A DNA stretch of 13,967 bases from NCBI GenBank assembly GCA_042217555.1, contig JBDGSL010000017.1:1-13967 (forward strand), given 5' to 3'. This document shows, one piece after another, positions 1,909 through 12,322 of this stretch; the first letter of the stretch is position 1, and each line of letters begins with the position of its first letter. The notes below the pieces were generated by a model. It worked only from the letters and a program-made list of their open reading frames with translations. It made no database searches and was not told where the DNA came from. Origin of the DNA: Candidatus Nanohalobium sp. GTDB taxonomy: Archaea > Nanohalarchaeota > Nanosalinia > Nanosalinales > Nanosalinaceae. The position numbers were made by a program, and so were the translations under genes.

Positions 1909-2175
1909 TCAAGATTTTTGCCGTCGACCTATATACCAATCTATCTCACCTACGTCATTGGCTAAAATTTTAGCAATCGCTCGGTGGTTTCCATCATTAA
2001 TCATTCCCCAGGTATCGGCTATTTCCCAGTCCTTTTCTCCGTGGACTTTATTCATTCTATCTCTCTTACTGGCTCTATTTCCAGGAGTTACGACCCATGG
2101 CAGAAATTCGTTCAGGACTTCAGGAACTTCCTTTAACGCCATTATGTATTTCACACTCTGATATTCATCAGGATC
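1909..2175 (-). pseudogene. 5'-truncated ParB/Srx-like domain protein fragment
   Basis: It carries the 'MINDGNHRAIA' (DGxHR) motif. The frame continues upstream of the GTG at 2154 (DPDEYQSVKY) into compositionally different sequence in front of the integrase, with no convincing start. Confidence 0.4.
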
Positions 2176-2204
2176 TGCGTCCGGGATCAGTGACGGATGT
2201 GACG

Positions 2205-3806
2205 ATGCGGATGGGGGTTAGAAAGTCGGTTGCACAACAACCGACCGACACGCATCGTGAAACAACAACCAAGACAAACTATGACAGTTCCGACATACAC
2301 AGAAGACTCGAAACCCTCAAAAACAAAGACTGCGTCTCAAAACGCAACGCACAACTTCTCGACGAGTTCGTAGAAGAACTCCAGGCACGAGACGGCACAA
2401 GCGACAGCAGAACAGTCTGGTACATCTCCAAATTCTCCACAATCCTACAACAATACCTCCGAAAAGACAGGTTCGAGAAAGACACACGAATCGACAGAAC
2501 ACTGGAACACGACCAACTGGACGAACTCACCAAATCCGACCTACTAGCAGTAATCGGCGTAATGAAGAAACTGCCGATGAACGACCTCTGGACAAAAGGA
2601 GTAGAAACCAAAGAAGGAATCCTCACACCGTTACAAGCTGCAGAAAGACTTACAGAGGAAGCATTCAACAGCCTGGAAAAGATCTACTCCGACTCCGTGA
2701 AGTACAAGGACTACGAACCCAGCGAAGAAATCTTCAACCAACTCCAAGACTACTCCGCAGCAAAAGTAGAAGACGGCGACTACAAGCTTACAGAGTTCGG
2801 AGAGAACATCAAAGATGTTAGCGAACCTGAGAAGTATGTGGAGAAAACCATGAACGGGTTCAAGACCGCCTTCAAGATGTTTCTCAAACTCCGCCACCCC
2901 TTGAAGATGGACAGACCTCGGAGAGTCAAGAGAATCATCCAGTCAGGAATTCTCAAAGGCAACACAGACGCAGACAGAAAAACCGAACTCCGCCTGTTCA
3001 GCCCCGAACAAATCTGGAAAATGGTAGAAGCAGCCAGAAACCCCAGAGACGCCCTACTGCCAATCCTATGTCTTGATGCAGGAGCCAGGAACAAGGAAAT
3101 CAGGAAAGTAAAGCTCTCTGACATAGAAAAGCAGTCCGAGACATGGATAGTAGAGTTCATCGACTCCAAAAACGGAAAACCGCCAAGAGACCTACCTTTG
3201 ACACACTGCATCGAACAGCTACGGGCATGGCTCGAAAGCCATCCACGAAAAGAAGAACCTGACGCACCACTGTTCGTAACACTTAACGACAAAGGGTACG
3301 GAGAGAAAGGCAGTGAACTCAAGAAAGAGAACATCAACAAGATCCTGAAACGGTTAGCCAAAAGAGCAGACGTAGTAGACAACCCAGAAACTGTCAAAGT
3401 CTACGATTTCAGGCACTCATCCGCCACATTCAGAGGCACAGAACAGGACTGGGGAGTCTCCAGGATGATGTACTGGTATGCGTGGAAAAAGCCAGACCGG
3501 GCGAAAACCTACTGCCACGAGGACAACAAACGGATGACAGAAGCCATCCTGAAAGACAAAGGAATCAAAACCGAGGATAACACCAACAACTCGATGCAGA
3601 TGCAGGAATGCCCACGCTGCGAGGAAAAACGACCAGCCAACGCCGAATACTGTCCAAAATGCTCTCTGCCTTTGGACAGCGAGACAGCCATGAGAGACGC
3701 AGACCTTAAGAAAGCAGCCAAAATCCTCGTAGACATCAAACTCGACGAAAAAATCGAAGACGAAGAACTCAAAGGACGTCTACAACGAGTCAGAGAAGGA
3801 ATCTAA
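2205..3806 (+). CDS. Tyrosine recombinase/integrase with C-terminal zinc ribbon
   Basis: Catalytic residues are R (GARNKE), K (DSKNG), YDFRH (the HxxR box with Y), W (YAWK) and Y (KTYCH). It also has 'PDAPLFV' and CPRC...CPKC, typical of archaeal integrases. The start is uncertain (ATG 2205 or 2211; the ORF is open from 2097). Confidence 0.9.
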   Translation: MRMGVRKSVAQQPTDTHRETTTKTNYDSSDIHRRLETLKNKDCVSKRNAQLLDEFVEELQARDGTSDSRTVWYISKFSTILQQYLRKDRFEKDTRIDRTLEHDQLDELTKSDLLAVIGVMKKLPMNDLWTKGVETKEGILTPLQAAERLTEEAFNSLEKIYSDSVKYKDYEPSEEIFNQLQDYSAAKVEDGDYKLTEFGENIKDVSEPEKYVEKTMNGFKTAFKMFLKLRHPLKMDRPRRVKRIIQSGILKGNTDADRKTELRLFSPEQIWKMVEAARNPRDALLPILCLDAGARNKEIRKVKLSDIEKQSETWIVEFIDSKNGKPPRDLPLTHCIEQLRAWLESHPRKEEPDAPLFVTLNDKGYGEKGSELKKENINKILKRLAKRADVVDNPETVKVYDFRHSSATFRGTEQDWGVSRMMYWYAWKKPDRAKTYCHEDNKRMTEAILKDKGIKTEDNTNNSMQMQECPRCEEKRPANAEYCPKCSLPLDSETAMRDADLKKAAKILVDIKLDEKIEDEELKGRLQRVREGI

Positions 3807-3871: not shown

Positions 3872-4867
3872 ATGAACCCTGAAGAAATGGTTCAGAAAAT
3901 CCTTGAGAAAGAGTTTCCTGATAGAGAACCTGTAGATACTTACCCGGCCGAAGGAGGTTTTGCACACGACACATTCTTCATAGATTTCAAGGACGAGAGC
4001 TTTGTACTGAAGATAAACGGTTTAGCTGACTTAGTCGAAAAACAGAACCAAGACTGGAATGCTCGGTTTGAAACTGAACCTTATGTACTGGATTTAATCC
4101 GCCAAAAAACCGATATTCCCGTTCCCGAATGTGTCGCAAGAGATACTTCCGAAACCACTATACCTGAATACTACCACATACTGCGAAAGATGGAAGGCTT
4201 TGCTCCGGCAGAAAGCTCTTCTAACCCTGCCTTCAGAAATTTAAGAGAGAACAAAAAGGAACAGATTTTACAGAAACTGGGAAATAATATCGCAAAACTC
4301 CATCAGATACAGTTTGAGGATTTTGGCGAGTTGAGAGTTAAAAATAAAGAATTGACAGTTGAGAAGGCTGAAGGATGGTCAGAATTATTTCATGAAATGA
4401 TATTATTCTGGATAAACCAATTGGAAGGCGGCAAGTTCGATGATCTAATACCTGAAATCAAGAATGCTGTTGAAAGAAACCTGGATTTGATAGAAAATGT
4501 AGGAGCACCTGTCTTGGTTCACAGAGAGGTAGACACTAAGAACATACTTGTTGAAGATGGCGAGCTTGCAGCGATTCTGGACTGGGAGGCATGTGTGGCG
4601 GGACACGGAGAATTTGACCTTGTGACAACAGAAGGAAGAATGATAGCACACAGCTTCAGCACAGACAGTATCTGGGAAAAATACAGGAAAGAACTGTATA
4701 AAGGCTATGAGAATATAAGGAATTTGGAAGTTGGCTGGGAGGAGAGAAGACAATTATATCTCCTATATCCTATGACTCTGGAAATGGCTTTCCATTCTGA
4801 CTCAGGAGCAAACAGCGAAGAAACAATCAGAAAAAGAACGGGAAAGATTCTCGAAGAATTACTTTAA
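3872..4867 (+). CDS. APH/choline-kinase-family phosphotransferase (atypical HRE catalytic loop)
   Basis: Motifs FVLKI, IPVPE, LAKLH-type helix, LVHREVDTKNIL and ILDWE. Confidence 0.85.
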   Translation: MNPEEMVQKILEKEFPDREPVDTYPAEGGFAHDTFFIDFKDESFVLKINGLADLVEKQNQDWNARFETEPYVLDLIRQKTDIPVPECVARDTSETTIPEYYHILRKMEGFAPAESSSNPAFRNLRENKKEQILQKLGNNIAKLHQIQFEDFGELRVKNKELTVEKAEGWSELFHEMILFWINQLEGGKFDDLIPEIKNAVERNLDLIENVGAPVLVHREVDTKNILVEDGELAAILDWEACVAGHGEFDLVTTEGRMIAHSFSTDSIWEKYRKELYKGYENIRNLEVGWEERRQLYLLYPMTLEMAFHSDSGANSEETIRKRTGKILEELL

Positions 4868-4890
4868 GTCTCAATTGAAAATTAACAGTT

Positions 4891-5907
4891 ATGCCTGATG
4901 AGAAAGTAGCTAGAGAGATAGTCAAGCATGAGTTTGATGATCCTGTAATTAAGAATGTCAGAGATGTTTCAGGTCTTTCTCACGCCGTCTTTATTGTAGA
5001 ATTAGAGGATAGAGAGGTTGCTGTCGCCTACTGTTATGAAGAAGTCCTGGAACATCGTTTCGAAGTGGCAGCCGAAACCACGGAACTTGTCGATGAAAAG
5101 ACAGATGTACCCGTTCCAGAAGTAATTTCTGTTGACCTGAGCAAAGAAAATATTCCGCATATGTACTATGTAATGGAGAAAATTGAAGGAGAAGCGATGA
5201 GTGTTTACGGCGGAACACCAGATTTCAGAAGATTCAGTAGAGAAAAGAAAGCAAAAATATTAGAACAAGTAGGAAAACACCTAGGAGAAATCCATAGCGA
5301 AATCCAGTTTTCAAAACACGGAAACATAAGCTATGACCTGGAAAAGAAAGAACTAACGGTAGAAGAGTGTTCAGAATGGCCTGAAGCACTTAGAGAAATA
5401 CTCAACGAACAAATACAAGACATAAAAGATGGAAGATTCTCCGACCTCATACCACAAATACAGGAAATAATAGACGACTACATCCATCTCGTTGATAGAG
5501 AATTTCAGCCTGTCCTTGTACATCAAGACTGTCTGCCCCAAAACATTATGGCAGATGGAGACCAAGTTACAGCTATAGTAGACTGGGAAAGAGCAGCTTC
5601 AGGACACAAGGAATACGACTTCTTCAAGACCGAAAGAGGATTTATTAGAACCGCATTTGAAACTGAAGAAGTTAAAGAACAATTGAGAAAACATCTTTAC
5701 AGAGGCTATCAGGAAACTAATAGTCTGAAAGAAGGCTGGGAAGAGAGAAGAGAATTTTACAACTTCATCTACTACATCAACAAAATTTGGGCTTATCCCG
5801 GAATAGTAGAAGACTGGAATTCAGAAGACAAGGACGAATTTGAAGGACAAATAAGAGAAGAATTTGAAGACATAGTTGAAAGAACCAAAGAAAGCCTAAA
5901 AACCTGA
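4891..5907 (+). CDS. APH/choline-kinase-family phosphotransferase
   Basis: Motifs VPVPEV, VMEKIEG, LVHQDCLPQNIM and IVDWE. It is a tandem paralog of the upstream gene. Confidence 0.9.
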   Translation: MPDEKVAREIVKHEFDDPVIKNVRDVSGLSHAVFIVELEDREVAVAYCYEEVLEHRFEVAAETTELVDEKTDVPVPEVISVDLSKENIPHMYYVMEKIEGEAMSVYGGTPDFRRFSREKKAKILEQVGKHLGEIHSEIQFSKHGNISYDLEKKELTVEECSEWPEALREILNEQIQDIKDGRFSDLIPQIQEIIDDYIHLVDREFQPVLVHQDCLPQNIMADGDQVTAIVDWERAASGHKEYDFFKTERGFIRTAFETEEVKEQLRKHLYRGYQETNSLKEGWEERREFYNFIYYINKIWAYPGIVEDWNSEDKDEFEGQIREEFEDIVERTKESLKT

Positions 5908-5909
5908 TT

Positions 5910-7412
5910 TTACAGCTCTTTTATCATTACTTTAACGCCTATATCCCTACCTTCTATGTCTTGCTTTCTCTCCTCTGTGACTTCATAACCATTTTTCCTG
6001 TAGAAATCAATTGCTTCCAGAGACGCCAGAGTCTCCATTTCCTCCAAGTTTTCTTCTCTGGCTTTCTCCTCTAGTTTCTGCATCAATTTTGAACCAATCC
6101 CTGATCCTTTCAGGTCTGGATCGACAAATATTCCTGCAACCGTACCGCTCTCCTTCTGAAAACCAGCTACGCCTACAATCTCACCGTCCTTTACAGCCAC
6201 AAAATAAACATATCTATCCTTTTCAGCAAACTCCAGGTTCATATCAGGGATTACTTCTTCCAAATGCCTTTGCTGTTCCTTAGAATAATACTCCAGCTCA
6301 ATATCCTCGACTGCTGCCCGAATTAAATGCCGTATATTGTCTTTATCTTTGTATCTTCTGATTTTCATTAATTCCCCCCCCCGGTCGTAGCTTATTTCCT
6401 TTTCAGCCGCCTTTTTTAGATTCTTCTGACGTTTTCTGAATAGTTGCCTGAAGAATTCTTCCTCTTCTTTTACTTCTTTTTGGCTTAGCCCTTCTCTTTC
6501 AGTCCAATTTTCGAATTTCTTCATACCTTCAAAGTTTTGAATCATGCTGTAATAGGTTATTCTCTGTTTCCATCGACCTTTAAACTCTCTCTGATTTCTA
6601 TATCCTCTGAAGAATTCTCTTTCCAGTTCTTGATTAATGCTCTCTGTCTCAAACCAGCGGTAAATCATCGAAACTCTGGAATTGGCGAGATCCCATTCGG
6701 GCGGCCCTGAGATAGCTTTCTCCCAGTCAATTACAGCATTTATATGATCATCTTTGACTATGAGATTATTTGGAGAGACATCCCAGTGGATGCAACAAAA
6801 GTAGTCGTTTGTATCGGCGAGATCTATATGCTGATCTACGAACTGTCGAGCATCCTCCACCATATCACTGAAACGAGTGTTTTCAAGTTCTTCGAGGCGT
6901 TCAAACGCCATTTGTTTCAAGTATTCTTTCCACTCGTGCTCCTCTATCTCTATTTCGCCATTTTTGTAAATTATTTCGCCGGCAGAGTCGAACTCGACCT
7001 TTTTATGGAGTTCTCCTAGATATTCTCCTGCTTCTTTCACGATATTTCTTTTAATTTCTCTTGGCAGATATTTGAACCTGTTCTGTGGATCATATCCTTC
7101 AATTTTTTCGGCTATGTAGAATAGATAAGGTACTTTTTTCTTTGAAAAGTCCGATTTCAGTATTTTCTGTGTAGGAATATCTGTCTTCTGGTTGACAAGT
7201 TCCACGAGCTTTTCCTCCTTCATGAACCGCCTCTCGTATTCCGTACTGGTATTGGTGCAAAGGTAAACAATTAGGCTATCTCCTGATTCAAGTTTAACTT
7301 CAAGAACATCTCTTGCGAAACCTGAATCATATTTCCTAAAGGATTTTACATCATAAGATGCCTCCAACGAACTCACAGTATTCTGAACCATTTGATCTGA
7401 AATTTCGGCCAT
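5910..7412 (-). CDS. APH-family phosphotransferase joined in frame to a GNAT acetyltransferase (possibly two genes)
   Basis: The kinase part has IHWDVSPNNLI and VIDWE. The GNAT part starts at ATG 6368 (MKIRRY) and has FVDPDLKGSGIGSKL and AIDFYRKNGY. A G9 run at 6374-6382 sits at the junction. Confidence 0.85.
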   Translation of the reverse strand: MAEISDQMVQNTVSSLEASYDVKSFRKYDSGFARDVLEVKLESGDSLIVYLCTNTSTEYERRFMKEEKLVELVNQKTDIPTQKILKSDFSKKKVPYLFYIAEKIEGYDPQNRFKYLPREIKRNIVKEAGEYLGELHKKVEFDSAGEIIYKNGEIEIEEHEWKEYLKQMAFERLEELENTRFSDMVEDARQFVDQHIDLADTNDYFCCIHWDVSPNNLIVKDDHINAVIDWEKAISGPPEWDLANSRVSMIYRWFETESINQELEREFFRGYRNQREFKGRWKQRITYYSMIQNFEGMKKFENWTEREGLSQKEVKEEEEFFRQLFRKRQKNLKKAAEKEISYDRGGELMKIRRYKDKDNIRHLIRAAVEDIELEYYSKEQQRHLEEVIPDMNLEFAEKDRYVYFVAVKDGEIVGVAGFQKESGTVAGIFVDPDLKGSGIGSKLMQKLEEKAREENLEEMETLASLEAIDFYRKNGYEVTEERKQDIEGRDIGVKVMIKEL

Positions 7413-7418
7413 AAAACA

Positions 7419-8210
7419 TCACATCTCTAAAGTTTTGAAGTCGCTCCAGACTTCGTAACCTCTCTTTTCGGCTGCCTCTTCCAGTTCTTCTGTGTGCATC
7501 TGGTTTAGGTGTTCGCTGATGTTGACGAGAACTGTTCTATCGGCGTCTACCTGTTTGATATTCTGTTCTATTTCTTCTGTGTATCCGTGGCTTTCTGCTC
7601 CGAACAGTTGTCCTTCTATCAAAGCAATATCAGCATTCTCGTAACAGTCTTCGTCTTCGGGAATATTGCGGACATCAGGCACATAAACAACCTTCTTGCC
7701 CTCTTTCCGGATCACATAACCCTGTGTTTCTTCTCCGTGTTCGACCTTGAAAGCCTCTACAGTGACATCGCCTACTTCGACTGTCTCTCCCGAACTCATA
7801 GTTTGGAAGTTGATGTTTTCGTTTTCGGCTATGTGGCTTTGCTTTTCCTGCAGGTAGTTCTGGGTTGTCTGGTTCCCGTAAACTGTTATTTTTCTTCCAT
7901 GCCAGCCGTTATAGTCGAAATCCTCAGGATTCAAAACGTGCTCTTCTATAGCGATATGATTAAGTTCACGGATTCCTGAAAAATGATCGAAATGGTAGTG
8001 TGTAAAAAAGAACCCATCAACATCAAAAACTTCGACTTCATGCAGCTGCTCCTTGATCTCAGGACTCATCTCGAAAACCAGAGTAACATCATCCGTCTCA
8101 ACCAGTAGACTTGGTCGTCTTCTCTTCTCCGATTCCTGACAGTATTCACAATTACACATAGGAACAGGCATGCCGATCGCATCGCCAGAACCAAGCAGAG
8201 TCACTTTCAT
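7419..8210 (-). CDS. PhnP-like metallo-beta-lactamase-fold phosphodiesterase
   Basis: N-terminus LGSGDAIGMPVPMCNCEYC and THYHFDH (HxHxDH). ATG 8210 overlaps the upstream stop (ATGA), with GGAGG just upstream. Confidence 0.85.
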   Translation of the reverse strand: MKVTLLGSGDAIGMPVPMCNCEYCQESEKRRRPSLLVETDDVTLVFEMSPEIKEQLHEVEVFDVDGFFFTHYHFDHFSGIRELNHIAIEEHVLNPEDFDYNGWHGRKITVYGNQTTQNYLQEKQSHIAENENINFQTMSSGETVEVGDVTVEAFKVEHGEETQGYVIRKEGKKVVYVPDVRNIPEDEDCYENADIALIEGQLFGAESHGYTEEIEQNIKQVDADRTVLVNISEHLNQMHTEELEEAAEKRGYEVWSDFKTLEM

Positions 8211-8956
8211 TTTTGAACCTCCCAAACCGATCTTACAGGTTTTTCAAGCTCTTCTCTATCAAAGCCCTGATAAACACTCCATTCAAAGAATTCTACCAAC
8301 TTAAGAAGTAGTTCAAACTCTCTTTTGGAGACCAGCTTAGTTTTGAACTCATTCTCCCAAACAATCTCATCCTGAGAGTTGTATAATTCGTTCTTTACTG
8401 TTCTTATCTGTTCTACTTCGCTTTCCCAGTTAACCTCAACTACTCTTTCGTATTCCTCACCTTCAATCTCTACTTTTTCGGTTGATCGTGACCCTTCTCC
8501 TGTTCCTTCCGCTACTTTCTCGAAGTCAGGTATATAGAAATCTACTATCAGCCTTCCGTCTTCTTTCAAATGTTCTTTACAGTTCTCCAGTGTTGATATC
8601 TGTTCTTCGATGGTTAGGTTGTGCATGAAGGTATTGAAAGGTATTATAATCAAGTCAAATTTTTTATCATAGTTAAAGTCCTCCATCTTAGCCTGCCTTA
8701 CTTTCGTATCTAAGCCTCTTTCACCAGCCTTCTCCCGCAATTTTTCCAACATTTCTTCTGATATATCGAATCCATAAATATCGGCTCCATTCTCTAAAGC
8801 ATCAAGGTAAATTCTTCCAGTTCCACAGCCGATCTCCAATACTCTTCCATCAGTCTGTCTTATTTCATCTAGATAGAATTGAACATCTTCTCCGTCTTCT
8901 GAGTAAATATAATCGTAGTATTCTGCCCATCCTTTGAACTGATCTTCATCAACCAT
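8207..8956 (-). CDS. Class I SAM-dependent methyltransferase
   Basis: Motif I VLEIGCGTGR, plus GFDISEEML, FDLII and LKEDGRLIVD. Confidence 0.9.
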   Translation of the reverse strand: MVDEDQFKGWAEYYDYIYSEDGEDVQFYLDEIRQTDGRVLEIGCGTGRIYLDALENGADIYGFDISEEMLEKLREKAGERGLDTKVRQAKMEDFNYDKKFDLIIIPFNTFMHNLTIEEQISTLENCKEHLKEDGRLIVDFYIPDFEKVAEGTGEGSRSTEKVEIEGEEYERVVEVNWESEVEQIRTVKNELYNSQDEIVWENEFKTKLVSKREFELLLKLVEFFEWSVYQGFDREELEKPVRSVWEVQK

Positions 8957-8992
8957 AGAAGAAGCTTTAATCTGTTTGAATAAAAATTCGTT

Positions 8993-9466
8993 CTAATCCC
9001 ACTCCACTGGTTCGTATGCTTCTGGGTAGAGTTCCTGGATCTGGAATTTCTGGATTTGAGGGAACAAATTCCATTCCCCACGTTCCTTTCTGACGAAGTT
9101 GCTGACCAGTACTGTTGTGTCTTTGTCTCCGAACTCGTTTATTGCGTGTCTACAAGCTCCACAAGGCATAGTTCCCTTGTGATCTTTATCTGGTACTGGC
9201 CCCGCTACCAGTACCGCTTCTATCTTTGAATATTCGGTTTCTTCGTACTGTAGCTGGTTTATAGCGTGTCTCTCGGCACAGAAATTGAAACTTGGCTGGC
9301 TCGACTCAAACGGTTTTCCTTCATAGATTTCTCCGCTTTCGGATAATACGAAGGCGTAGATAACATCGTATAGATCGTTTTCCCAGCGATTCTTGGCGTG
9401 CTCCTCGATTCTTTCTCTGGCATACTCTATTAGCTCTTCTTCGTGTTCTGTTAGTTGGTCACTCAT
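8993..9466 (-). CDS. Cytidine deaminase family protein (three-Cys Zn site, as in tetrameric CDA/blasticidin-S deaminase)
   Basis: Zn-binding motifs FCAERHAI and PCGACRH. Confidence 0.85.
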   Translation of the reverse strand: MSDQLTEHEEELIEYARERIEEHAKNRWENDLYDVIYAFVLSESGEIYEGKPFESSQPSFNFCAERHAINQLQYEETEYSKIEAVLVAGPVPDKDHKGTMPCGACRHAINEFGDKDTTVLVSNFVRKERGEWNLFPQIQKFQIQELYPEAYEPVEWD

Positions 9467-9998
9467 AGTACTCGTCCTCTAAAATACTCATCCAGGTGAC
9501 GTTTTTCCATTCTCCGTCTACATACTTGTAGTCTCTTTCTGTGCCTTCTTCTTGGAATCCTGCTTTCTCCATTACCCGTCTTGACGCAGGATTACCTTCG
9601 AGATAACCGCCCCTGATCTTGTGACGATTTAAAGTCTCGAAAGTGTAGGTTACTACCATTTTCAGGCTTTTTGTTCCGATTCCTTGTCCGTGGTATTCTG
9701 GGTGTACAAAGTATCTTATGTGGCTACGTCCATAATCACTTTCCAAACCACCAAGAAAGATATGGCCGACCTTCTCTCCTTGATACTCTATGAGGAAGTG
9801 GACGCTTTCATCATCTGAACTAAATTCTTCAATATACTCTTCTTCTTGAGATACATTAATCGGTCTTGGAGCTCTACCAAGGTATGCTCTGACTTCTCCG
9901 TGGCTTATTGTTTCTGCGATAAACTCTGCGTCTTCCATTTCTACTGGTCGGAGAACTACATCATCCCATTCCATAAACTTACTTGTTGTTTCTGTCAC
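9459..9998 (-). CDS. RimJ/RimL-family GNAT N-acetyltransferase
   Basis: Motifs LRPVEMED, HPEYHGQGIGT and NPASRRVMEKAGF. The likely GTG start at 9998 overlaps the upstream TGA and has AGGTGA 6 nt upstream. Confidence 0.88.
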   Translation of the reverse strand: MTETTSKFMEWDDVVLRPVEMEDAEFIAETISHGEVRAYLGRAPRPINVSQEEEYIEEFSSDDESVHFLIEYQGEKVGHIFLGGLESDYGRSHIRYFVHPEYHGQGIGTKSLKMVVTYTFETLNRHKIRGGYLEGNPASRRVMEKAGFQEEGTERDYKYVDGEWKNVTWMSILEDEYYE

Positions 9999-10525
9999 TG
10001 CCAATCACCTTCTACAACGCCGTAGTAAACGACATCTTTGTATTCTCCCTGTTTGAAGGTGTGGTCTTTGAATACTCCTTCTTTGTCGAATCCAAGTTTT
10101 TCCCAGACACTTTGTGACGCCTTGTTACCTTGATAGGCTCGTGCGTATACTTTGTGGTAGTTTAGCTGGTTGAAGGCGTAATCTGTAATTAATTGTGACG
10201 CTTCTGTGCCGTATCCGTTTCCGTGGTGGTCTGGGTGTATCCAGATACCGATTTCGGCAAGTTTTTCTGCGTTATCGCCTTGAGGCATCAGACTGATTAT
10301 ACCCATTTTTTCTTCATCTCTGGATATCATCAAGTGTACTGTGTCTTCTCCGCAGATTTGTTCTTCAAAGAACTCTTCTTCGTTCTCAAGGTTTTGAGGT
10401 TTTCTGTTACCCATATATACACGGACTTCAGGGTGATTTACTCCATCTCGGAGAAATTCTATGTCTTCCTCTTCGATTGTCCTTAAGTTGATTTTTTCGC
10501 CTTTAAGAAATACTGTTCCAGCCAT
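9995..10525 (-). CDS. RimJ/RimL-family GNAT N-acetyltransferase
   Basis: Motifs LRTIEEED, EIGIWIHPDHHGNGYGTEA and NKASQSVWEKLGF. Confidence 0.9.
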   Translation of the reverse strand: MAGTVFLKGEKINLRTIEEEDIEFLRDGVNHPEVRVYMGNRKPQNLENEEEFFEEQICGEDTVHLMISRDEEKMGIISLMPQGDNAEKLAEIGIWIHPDHHGNGYGTEASQLITDYAFNQLNYHKVYARAYQGNKASQSVWEKLGFDKEGVFKDHTFKQGEYKDVVYYGVVEGDWQ

Positions 10526-10580
10526 AGAGAGGATTTTCTTTCAGGCTGTTATAATTTTAAGGCAATTGCTTCTATATCTG

Positions 10581-10593
10581 GAAAAGATTTAAG
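10581..10593 (+). promoter_or_regulatory. Archaeal BRE/TATA-like promoter for the proS leader
   Basis: GAAAAGA-TTTAAG, with the TATA-like part 25-30 nt before ATG 10618. This spacing is expected for a leaderless archaeal transcript. Confidence 0.55.
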
Positions 10594-10617
10594 AAACTCA
10601 TCACATCTCTGATAGTT

Positions 10618-10647
10618 ATGTCTGGTGACTACGTTCCTCGGCAGTAG
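10618..10647 (+). CDS. Putative leader peptide uORF1 (MSGDYVPRQ)
   Basis: ATG TCT GGT GAC TAC GTT CCT CGG CAG TAG. It sits at the predicted transcript start and shares a motif with uORF2. Confidence 0.6.
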   Translation: MSGDYVPRQ

Positions 10648-10699
10648 AATATTTGAGAGTTCTTTTAGTCGCCAGAATACCGAATTTTCCGTGATTTCT

Positions 10700-10756
10700 A
10701 TGAACAAAGTTTCAACTACAGGTGGATACGTTCCACCACGACAACAGATTCGATAA
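10700..10756 (+). CDS. Putative leader peptide uORF2 (MNKVSTTGGYVPPRQQIR)
   Basis: It has tandem CCA CCA Pro codons at 10733-10738 and shares G-x-Y-V-P..R-Q with uORF1. Confidence 0.6.
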   Translation: MNKVSTTGGYVPPRQQIR

Positions 10757-10862
10757 CTATCGAAACTTTGGAGAAGTTTCTGGTGTTGCAGAAACTCGAA
10801 GAGTTTCGAACCACTCAAAATCCTTTAACAACACTTTTTTCCTCAACTTCTGGTGAACGCTG

Positions 10863-12083
10863 GTGAGACGCAGTAATCTCTTCGTAACCAGTTCCAAAGA
10901 GACAGAAGCCGACACGCACTGTAAAAGTGCCGAACTTGCGGTACAAGCAGGGCTTGTCCACAACTACGGCTCTGGAACCTTTGGATTCTCCCATCTCGGT
11001 CAGAGAGTTCTGAATAACATAGAATCAGTGATCAGAGAAGAAATGGACGAAATCGGGCAAGAAGTGAAGATGAACCTTCTCCAGACCAGTGAACTGTGGG
11101 AGAAGTCAGGGCGTTGGAAGAACTTTGAAGGAGAAGAGTTCTTCAACTTCAAGAACAGAGACGACAAAGACTTCACCATCGCCGCAACACACGAAGAAGC
11201 ATCCGTAGAACTCACAAAGAAGTACATCCGAAGCTACAGGGATCTCGACCTAACGATCTACCAGATCGGCAGAAAGTTCAGAGACGACCACGCCAGAAAC
11301 GGTCTTTTGCGGACGAAAGAGTTCATTATGAAGGACGCCTATAGCTTCCACAAAGACAGAGAAGGGCTACAGGAGAAGTACCGTGAGTTCCTCAACGCCT
11401 ACCGAACTATCTTCGACAAGCTCGGACTTGAGTACTCTGTCGTTGCCACTGACAACGGCTCTATGGGAGGAAGTCAAAGCCACGAATTTATGGCCGAAGC
11501 AGAAATCGGAAGCGACACCTACCTGAAATCCGACAACTGTGAGTTCGGAACCAAGAATCTTGACACTGGAAACTGTGGCAACTGTGGTTCAGAGCTCCGT
11601 GAAGTGAACGGTATAGAGATCGGTCACTGTTTCAAACTTGGAACCCGATACAGCGAATCTATGGATCTAACCTTCGATACCGAAGAGGGAGATACAGAGA
11701 ACGTGGTTATGGCCAGTTATGGGATCGGAGTAAGTCGATTGATTTCAGCGATCATAGAGCAGAATCACGATCAGAATGGCATCACTTGGAATGAAGAAGT
11801 GTCTGCTTTCAACTTTTCTGTGATTGCCGCAAGGCACGAAGAGGAAGTAACGGAGAAAGCAGAGAGCATCTATCAAGAGCTACAGGAGCAGGGAGTAGAC
11901 GTTCTGCTTTATGACGGTCAACTATCTACAGGCGAGCAGTTCAGGGAGTCTGATCTTCTCGGAGTCAACCGCAAAGTTATCGTGGGCAGTAATTTCCTTG
12001 AGAACGGAAAGATTGAGATAGAGTCCAGAAGCGGAGAAAAGAAGGAAGTTGAAGCAGGAGAAATGGTGGAAGAAATGAGCTAA
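10863..12083 (+). CDS. proS: Prolyl-tRNA synthetase, bacterial-type, short form without the INS editing domain; contains no proline
   Basis: Motifs include LWEKSGRW, THEE, motif 2 YQIGRKFRD...EFIMKDAYSF, MGGSQSHEF, GIEIGHCFKLG, motif 3 MASYGIGVSR and a class IIa anticodon-binding domain. It starts with GTG. Confidence 0.93.
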   Translation: MRRSNLFVTSSKETEADTHCKSAELAVQAGLVHNYGSGTFGFSHLGQRVLNNIESVIREEMDEIGQEVKMNLLQTSELWEKSGRWKNFEGEEFFNFKNRDDKDFTIAATHEEASVELTKKYIRSYRDLDLTIYQIGRKFRDDHARNGLLRTKEFIMKDAYSFHKDREGLQEKYREFLNAYRTIFDKLGLEYSVVATDNGSMGGSQSHEFMAEAEIGSDTYLKSDNCEFGTKNLDTGNCGNCGSELREVNGIEIGHCFKLGTRYSESMDLTFDTEEGDTENVVMASYGIGVSRLISAIIEQNHDQNGITWNEEVSAFNFSVIAARHEEEVTEKAESIYQELQEQGVDVLLYDGQLSTGEQFRESDLLGVNRKVIVGSNFLENGKIEIESRSGEKKEVEAGEMVEEMS

Positions 12084-12159
12084 CAACTTCTTTCTCCTAA
12101 TTTTTCGGTGGAATCGAAAACTCAAGAGTTTTCTTAATCCACACGAAATCTCCGATTTC

Positions 12160-12230
12160 GGCGGGATAGTGTAGCGGCATCATCGCACGTTCGGGACGTG
12201 CGGACGGCGGTTCGAATCCGCCTCCTGCCA
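12160..12230 (+). tRNA. tRNA-Pro(CGG)
   Basis: The cloverleaf has acceptor GGCGGGA/TCCTGCC, D-arm GTG/CAT, anticodon arm GCACG-TTCGGGA-CGTGC, T-arm GGCGG-TTCGAAT-CCGCC and discriminator A. It has no intron and no separately encoded CCA tail. Confidence 0.95.
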
Positions 12231-12322
12231 ATTGCATATACCTTAATTTTATAGAAATCCCGAAACTGCCAAAGCATTTCTGTGGAATAAATTCTAAAGT
12301 TTAGCTTACTGAAGGTTTGATT

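Follow-up and report, generated by a model that had tools for sequence, protein, structure and literature searches.

Upstream of a gene for a bacterial-type prolyl-tRNA synthetase (ProRS) in Candidatus Nanohalobium sp. lies a leader in which two short upstream open reading frames (uORFs) are joined to each other, and to the start of the synthetase gene (proS), by +1-shifted frames that remain open and contain no Pro codon. Sequence comparison provides strong evidence that this leader is codon-specific and frame-changing, and +1 slippage at 'hungry' Pro codons within two copies of a conserved cassette, followed by termination and reinitiation, probably switches proS on. The uORFs and the Pro-free proS are, judging from comparison of related loci, real and conserved within the Nanohaloarchaea. 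An initial annotation of the same DNA (a stretch of 13,967 nucleotides, termed here the window) had recognized the uORFs and had proposed that ribosomes stall at their Pro codons, but it overlooked the stop-free, Pro-free +1 frames that link the uORFs and proS.

All features of the leader, proS and the adjoining tRNA gene described here are on the + strand. A BRE/TATA-like promoter box (10580-10595) contains the sequence TTTAAG (10588-10593), which begins 30 nt 5' of the uORF1 ATG, in agreement with the initial annotation, and a purine run precedes the box; with a loose pattern, a TATA-like match beginning 27-37 nt 5' of the ATG is found at 19 of 19 loci. uORF1 (MSGDYVPRQ*, 10618-10647), the translation of which is predicted to be leaderless, has an equivalent at all 19 loci with DNA covering that stretch. 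It harbors site 1 (GGT GAC TAC GTT CCT, 10624-10638), which is recognized by its conservation and consists of an SD-like sequence, a spacer, a predicted P-site codon GUU and a Pro codon. A +1 shift here would lead into a first shifted frame (10637-10732) of 32 codons, none of them a stop or a Pro codon, that passes through the uORF2 ATG and reaches site 2. The uORF2 ATG and an SD-like sequence, GTGAT, together occupy 10691-10702; an in-frame uORF2 ATG with a GTG-containing motif 5' of it is present at 19 of 19 loci, and is likely a second point of ribosome entry. uORF2 itself (MNKVSTTGGYVPPRQQIR*, 10700-10756), which like uORF1 was correctly read in the initial annotation, has its own stop 106 nt 5' of proS and harbors site 2 (GGT GGA TAC GTT CCA) within a hairpin, H2 (GGUGGA/UCCACC; 10721-10737). 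The second shifted frame (10734-10856) runs for 40 codons, again with no Pro, to a TGA (10854-10856) that is 6 nt 5' of the proS start (i.e., at position -9). The SD-like sequence of proS, GGTGA (10852-10856), sits at -11 from the GTG start codon, which is the genome-wide SD peak position. proS (10863-12083; identified by TIGR00409 and Pfam) encodes 406 residues without a single Pro, so that, as originally noted, the predicted path has Pro codons only within the uORFs (CCT 10636, CCA 10733 and CCA 10736). Directly 3' of proS is a tRNA-Pro(CGG) gene (12160-12230); a tRNA-Pro gene also lies 3' of the Pro-free proS at L195, L003/L205, L207 and L208.

The initial annotation had expected YVP(P)RQ uORFs upstream of homologous proS genes, and this expectation is borne out only for its first half: an ATG-led G-x-x-[VI]-P uORF occurs at 26 of 26 nanohaloarchaeal loci with upstream DNA (versus 1 of 143 more distant loci), but the P(P)RQ tail is retained at only 13 of 40 sites. 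Since G-x-Y-V-P occurs just 8 times in the six frames of the 1.3-Mb genome, the motif is not due to chance. Leaders were compared over 20 loci, after removing five duplicates (L113, L116, L117, L191 and L192) and L122, a truncated near-copy of L124 with a wrongly assigned start; at L008 an N gap spans uORF1. Starting from the uORF1 ATG at each locus, a walk was performed in which the frame was shifted by +1 at every in-frame NT(T/C)-CCN, without demanding an SD-like motif. This walk yields 41 sites, two per path except for three in L121 and L193, with each path halting at the proS start.

What these sites share is a DNA cassette, GGTGRN-NNN-NTT-CCN. Each of the 41 has GTG(A/G) at -8 to -5, with the GTG at -8 to -6 and a purine after it; a G precedes the GTG in 40 (at L031 the first G of GGTG is lost and the GTG retained); pyrimidines occupy -3 and -1 in all 41; and the codon before Pro contains TT in 40, being GTT 35 times, ATT three times, and CTT, TTT and GTC once each. 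The Pro codon is CCT (17), CCA (16) or CCG (8) and never CCC, which constitutes 12% of Pro codons genome-wide; because it is never CCC, no shifted frame opens with Pro (0 of 41). At 40 of the 41 sites the codon predicted to be read after a +1 shift is TTC, and a C follows the Pro codon at 38. A second Pro comes next at 7 of 40 sites, leaving a single cognate codon at 33. The proposal of a conserved peptide in place of conserved DNA is thus rejected: the similarity of the peptides arises from the SD-like DNA, the NTT-CC and the C after the Pro codon. The 3' end of 16S rRNA, taken here from five relatives, pairs with GGUG(A/G); relatives were used because a search with three short motifs found no 16S rRNA within the window's own assembly. 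The hexamer GGTGRN ends 3 nt 5' of NTT, and its paired core is 5 nt long; this core starts at -9, about 2 nt closer than the genome's initiation SD peak at -11. A scan that demanded neither SD nor NTT revealed no GGAGG-type variant among the leaders. Within ordinary genes GTT-CCN is not avoided (329 observed versus 221 expected), so that this dicodon alone must be insufficient, and the long ORFs of the genome contain 5 in-frame cassettes.

The spacing of the sites preserves the phase that successive +1 shifts would require. Site-to-site distances are 1 mod 3 in 21 of 21 cases, comprising 8 distinct lengths between 76 and 121, and distances from the last site to the start are 0 mod 3 for 13 of 15 distinct values. 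All 41 shifted segments extend to the next site or to the start region, and at 18 of the 20 loci the terminal TGA overlaps the proS start as NTGA. Among 1,417 shifted codons none is Pro, as compared with 67 in shuffles and with 48 and 69 in the other two frames--a zero that is partly built into the walk, as any Pro codon after NT(T/C) counts as a site, yet every site so defined had the SD-like motif. Over the same segments the other two frames contain 70 and 118 stops. Inserts as long as 96 and 98 codons leave the shifted frame open at two loci. Because the loci are related, these counts are not of independent events. In L193, L124 and L231 the last shifted frame includes an acidic, Pro-free stretch of 95-98 codons that resembles a small captured gene.

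The two exceptions to the NTGA overlap are L121, where the stop is at +11, and the window, where a run of T6 with one extra base (10835-10841) moves the terminal stop from overlapping the start to -9. In all four runs there are variant contigs with one base fewer at 10841; elsewhere they differ by +3 near 10653, by -54, or by indels that balance. An assembly error as the cause of the stop at -9 is not supported: contigs from runs X1 and X2 agree with the window letter for letter, though these may be the window's source. A 54-nt in-frame hairpin insert (10755-10808), which has no counterpart in the genome's second proS copy, resembles one found in the proC leader of genome G029 and in variant contigs, and is always in frame. 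Extra partial copies of an archaeal-type proS (G000 C62:2-751 and C34:2-613) and of a thrS-like start (G000 C70:6486-6759) occur at contig ends; together with the two bacterial-type proS copies these possibly reflect mixing of strains in the assembly.

That ribosomes would need to change frame in order to reach proS is suggested by the distances involved. In Haloferax, reinitiation amounts to 40-60% across a gap of 13-14 nt and all but vanishes once the gap reaches 22-23 nt, according to the experiments described in one report (PMC10666635). The window's 6-nt gap is therefore within the range tolerated for coupling, whereas the uORFs' own stops, which lie 42-246 nt upstream of proS in 19 loci, are incompatible with it. 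The stop-free, Pro-free +1 frames that join the uORFs and proS thus point to frameshifting followed by translational coupling.

The downstream gene is itself purged of proline. It would encode a second, presumably active ProRS, of bacterial type: it scores 422.1 bits against TIGR00409 (cut-off 306.7) and does not reach the thresholds of the models PRK09194 and PRK12325; its core motifs (THEE, FRD, MKDAYSFH, GHxFxLG and YGIGVSR) align with those of the solved bacterial ProRS 8w8j; and both Pfam and comparison with 8w8j indicate that it lacks the editing insertion. With Pro at a frequency of 3.5% in the genome, a protein of 406 residues would contain none with a probability of about 5e-7. Among 775 long ORFs, and setting aside the second gene copy, one other lacks Pro: an ORF of 271 residues (G000 C37:10541-11353, + strand) that, by eye, looks like a coiled coil. 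The genome also contains a native archaeal-type proS, on contig C27, and the second bacterial-type copy, on contig C83, which is 96% identical and has the same leader. The closest named relatives are nanohaloarchaeal. Among 70 genomes of the class the gene was found in 12, which all belong to one family; a native proS accompanies it in 9 of these, and the remaining three are 75-82% complete. Of 63 near-full-length proteins of this clade, 59 lack Pro entirely and the total is 4 Pro in 25,268 residues, compared with 10-20 per protein in 39 sister proteins (several of which are labelled haloarchaeal) and 8-20 in 64 bacterial proteins. Prolines that are nearly universal in the outgroups are replaced within the clade at window protein positions 44, 71, 108, 129, 310, 315 and 369. 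In a quick tree of 59 rows the Pro-free proteins form a single branch with support of 100. A class II synthetase of 406 residues that lacks the family's conserved prolines is structurally interesting in itself. In L203, L204 and L202 (genomes G022, G034 and G033) the native proS is on the same strand as the Pro-free one and no more than about 2 kb downstream of it, whereas in five other loci a tRNA-Pro gene comes after the Pro-free proS.

The same leader also precedes other proline-related genes. Hits to the uORF2 DNA pattern came from 11 of 70 genomes, with none for the same pattern reversed as a control; for uORF1, 19 of 70 genomes gave hits (against 1 for its control), at 24 places, of which 9 are before a Pro-free proS, 1 before a remnant of it, 2 before proC, 2 before a native proS, 3 before an operon ending in native proS and 2 run off contig ends. 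The remaining 5 (three in G042, G025:C26 and G000:C27) were judged by inspection to be chance matches, having neither a TATA-like box nor coupling. The proC assignment in G016 was made by eye across an N gap. In G029 a two-site chain ends on a GTGA overlap with a ProC-ProB ORF, which is followed by proA; in G005 the chain ends 3 nt 5' of the native proS, and the shifted frame holds 2 Pro. Single-site forms of the leader likewise couple to native proS. At L221, L222 and L223 (G052, G050 and G046) a single-site Pro leader is coupled to the first gene of an operon, a gene with no Pro in 259 residues in G050; the operon consists of what we take, by eye, to be a Nif3-like gene, then a CsaA-like gene and the native proS.

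Nor is the cassette confined to proline. A scan of the window's genome that was blind to the identity of the amino acid found 8 coupled cassettes, 6 of which have a TATA-like box. Gly codons lie ahead of glyS and Val codons ahead of valS; Pro codons precede the two copies of proS, with each uORF counted separately; Thr precedes a TGS-domain thrS-like start that a contig end truncates; and the last is a two-site His chain. The control frame (shifts of +2 and -1 being the same frame, and hence one control) gave 2 hits, none with a TATA-like box. Among thrS loci--the best-scoring 30 of 64, of which 29 were analysable and two of the negatives have almost no upstream DNA--a coupled cassette precedes 19 of 29, in every case with Thr as the hungry codon (control frame, 2 of 29). 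For native proS (30 of 57 loci) the corresponding numbers are 4 of 30, all Pro, and 1 of 30. The P-site codon differs between the two sets: at the 19 Thr sites, which have A as the next base, it is TTT (15) or CTT (4) and in no case GTT; at the Pro sites, which have C as the next base, it is GTT or ATT in 38 of 41. One thrS leader, L259, has GCG in place of GTG and retains the overlap, and another has CCT in place of NTT. The shifted frame contains 1 Gly in the glyS leader and 4 Val in the valS leader.

A His pattern was found in 22 of 70 genomes (control, 0), with 20 of 23 places coupled (control frame, 7 of 23); 4 are coupled to a gene that by eye is hisS-like, and 15 lead through a second His site into an AbrB-like frame. 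In this latter arrangement (L307:5367-5752, on the minus strand of G000 C83, and L309-L329; 15 of the 23 places) the two-site chain enters a His-free, AbrB/MazE-like frame that has no ATG of its own and that is coupled in turn to additional ORFs, most of them without His and none belonging to a known family; the AbrB/MazE-like protein may be a regulator that is produced only upon His shortage.

Given that the proS clade has been purged of proline, that the leader recurs on proline genes and that elsewhere its codon matches the target, the initial annotation was on firm ground in regarding the Pro codons as the likely sensor and proS as the likely output. The proposed mechanism, however, is different. 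Ribosomes would initiate leaderless at uORF1. When charged tRNA-Pro is plentiful, the Pro codon would be read and the ribosome would stop at the uORF's own stop, too distant for coupling. When charged tRNA-Pro is scarce, the Pro codon would wait within the A-site while the peptidyl-tRNA on GUU re-pairs with the overlapping UUC, a slip that pairing of GGUG(A/G) with 16S rRNA would assist. Decoding would then proceed in a frame lacking both stops and Pro codons; after a second slip, the ribosome would terminate next to the start of proS and reinitiate at it. Because it contains no Pro, the induced ProRS could be made even during a shortage of proline, and it would restore the charging of tRNA-Pro, thereby closing a negative feedback loop. 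Two sites in series would sharpen the response, and the uORF2 ATG would provide a second entry with one site.

By the wobble rules, the P-site codon fits such re-pairing: a tRNA with G34 would gain a G-C pair on UUC, before C. A weak point is that GUU on UUC re-pairs at 2 of 3 bases, with a first-position mismatch. The push from the SD-like sequence is possibly weak, both because its core is about 2 nt closer than the initiation peak and because it pairs with a different part of the anti-SD than does that of RF2. A weak point of the two-site design is that the uORF2 ATG would bypass site 1. The frameshift reading must also be weighed against certain exceptions: the stop at -9 in the window and at +11 in L121; the Pro, Gly and Val codons within the shifted frames of the G005, glyS and valS leaders; the thrS leader with CCT for NTT; and the presence of a coupled cassette at so few native proS loci.

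Retaining the same sensor and the same frames, one may suppose instead that the ribosome drops off, or is rescued, at the hungry Pro codon and that translation restarts at the GTG of GGTG. This is a real rival, because that GTG lies in the +1 frame, 8 nt upstream. The GTG's retention at every Pro site, even at L031, accords with it, as do the ATG, likewise a start codon, at site 1 of G005, the lack of any GGAGG-type variant, and a report that archaeal reinitiation works at short distance with the SD dispensable (PMC6728339). Yet GTG is also the core of this group's SD, and the L259 thrS leader keeps its overlap with GCG instead; moreover, restarting leaves unexplained both the near-invariant NTT and the switch from GTT to TTT or CTT along with the first base of the hungry codon. 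This difference in P-site codon usage between Pro and Thr sites favors slippage over restart, which is accordingly regarded as improbable, though it is the alternative to be taken most seriously.

The leader's RNA structure bears on a second alternative. A helix, H1, of 11 bp within the window joins 10621-10631, a strand that overlies the SD-like sequence of site 1, to 10666-10676. Across 13 aligned leaders 89.5% of H1 cells are paired and 5 of its 11 pairs have changed on both sides; H2 is 98.7% paired but, because none of its pairs has changed on both sides, lacks covariation support. The structure as a whole, which was derived from the same aligned sequences on which it was tested, scores above all 500 shuffles on three of five measures and above all slid controls. 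Folding of 10618-10900 is unremarkable overall (z -1.29), and the uORF2 ATG is about half open in folding predictions. In ribosome-free RNA both helices are predicted to bury the SD-like motif and the GTG, and they could in this way block starts that bypass the sensor. No Rfam family other than tRNA reached its gathering score within 10450-12300.

According to the model of the initial annotation, a ribosome stalled at the Pro codon would melt H1, and refolding would release proS initiation or transcription with no change of frame. The covariation of H1, and the position of its 5' strand under a ribosome at site 1, are what one would expect; and at 7 of 19 loci the freed 3' strand pairs with the proS start region better than do shuffles (p up to 0.02). 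Such pairing, however, would close proS rather than open it, is missing at 12 of the 19 loci, and in five of the seven occurs among close kin. A bacterial-type pattern scan found no terminator-like site within the window's leader, and T-runs of at least 5 occur at 2 of 19 loci. The residues after Pro vary, so that a peptide-stalling attenuator is probably wrong, and the conserved phase, the stop-free, Pro-free +1 frames (of up to 98 codons) and the NTGA overlaps are left unaccounted for; this model is therefore given little credence, less than restart. It is more unlikely still that these are slip sites of fixed ratio, which, as a class known from set-ratio frameshifting (as a review of archaea describes; PMC8211752), would supply a low, constant level of the second ProRS without responding to Pro-tRNA, inasmuch as this requires neither an A-site codon matching the target's amino acid nor a target purged of Pro.

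Slippage followed by reinitiation is thus the preferred reading, and it may well extend further: the Nanohaloarchaea would possess a single portable, codon-programmable switch for synthetases and amino-acid genes, in which a leaderless uORF carrying an RF2-like cassette converts frameshifting into reinitiation. This would be an archaeal counterpart of the T-box with the ribosome as sensor, in which two or three stacked sites tune the response and whose Pro target has been driven to lose all its prolines. T-box riboswitches likewise apply one design, with an exchangeable codon, to many synthetase and biosynthesis genes; they bind uncharged tRNA directly, whereas here the leader is read in frame from an ATG and, as noted, matches no such Rfam family.

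In its shift site the leader would act like prfB, in its sensing like an attenuator and in its leader frameshift like ermC, though it lacks defining features of the first two. In the RF2 gene, prfB, a slow UGA follows a CUU that is preceded, at 3 nt, by an internal SD, as a 2016 review describes (PMC5009743). The leader resembles it in that a purine-rich, SD-like hexamer precedes a P-site NUU by 3 nt, but the core that pairs, at about 2 nt closer than initiation SDs, is compressed less than in RF2. Also alike would be the sensing through a slowly read A-site codon, the +1 direction of the slip, and a feedback onto the factor that this codon depends on. In contrast to prfB as there described, the A-site codon is a sense Pro codon rather than UGA; the P-site codon is mostly GUU rather than a CUU that re-pairs on UUU; and the shift occurs within a leader, at tandem sites, with predicted reinitiation on a separate ORF rather than synthesis of a trans-frame protein. 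Indeed, unlike prfB, proS is one ORF with its own start, at or beside which the shifted frame stops. In the ketolide leader of ermC, according to the same review, a frameshift within a uORF sends ribosomes into the spacer and turns the downstream gene on; there the trigger is an antibiotic and the output an unfolding of the mRNA, whereas here the predicted trigger is a cognate codon at the cassette and the shifted frame ends on a start codon (PMC5009743).

The leader shares with leuL/ilvL attenuation, as described in one account (PMC8384417), the use of cognate codons within a short uORF to report aminoacyl-tRNA supply, and the pathway's cognate codon is found in a short uORF in the Pro, Thr, Gly and Val cases alike. 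It differs in mostly having a single cognate codon, in having no terminator-like site that was found, and in its conserved +1 frames, which attenuators do not need. In C. elegans zip-2, too, the gene is activated when slowed elongation makes ribosomes shift by +1 from an upstream ORF; that system, as described, is eukaryotic, responds to general elongation defects, yields a fusion protein and is not amino-acid specific (PMC11831180). The proposed output resembles the -4/-1 overlaps of Haloferax volcanii, in which an NTGA overlap has its SD inside the upstream frame (PMC6728339, PMC10666635); those described are constitutive gene pairs, whereas here the upstream frame lacks an ordinary start and is predicted to be reached by frameshift.

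If this interpretation is true, it would be a natural, programmed use of hungry-codon slippage, for which the 2016 review, in its account of such frameshifting, gave no known case yielding starvation-specific functional proteins (PMC5009743). It would also be a conserved +1 frameshift system within archaeal chromosomal genes, where a 2021 review of archaea mentions one reported -1 frameshift in a cellular gene, fucA1 (PMC8211752), and would represent one phylum's way of matching synthetase levels to tRNA charging. No published description of the leader was found in the literature searched, largely open-access papers. A cassette of 15 nt gives sharp predictions regarding codon swaps, changes of phase and the insertion of stops.

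No exact match to the Thr pattern turned up among 151 genomes of the phylum of G059, nor in G060, in searches that had no positive control and that do not imply the mechanism's absence there. Searches aimed at haloarchaeal loci gave no close match in plasmids, and none in viral contigs or in 41 genomes of the phylum of G058. One locus, L125 (about 2780-2950, on a contig of 62% GC), has a proS of the haloarchaeal clade with 14 Pro, preceded by a single uORF that ends GTT CCG CGA TAG; when shifted by +1, the frame continues without Pro over about 40 codons to a stop just within the proS start, but there is no GGTG at -9. Going by L125 alone, the mechanism may reach into the haloarchaea. Finally, profile searches of the rest of the window identified a tyrosine recombinase gene (2097-3806) followed by a cluster (3872-10525) of genes for APH-like kinases, GNAT acetyltransferases, a methyltransferase, a metallo-beta-lactamase-fold protein and a cytidine deaminase-like protein; this region may be a variable island that adjoins the proS-tRNA-Pro unit.
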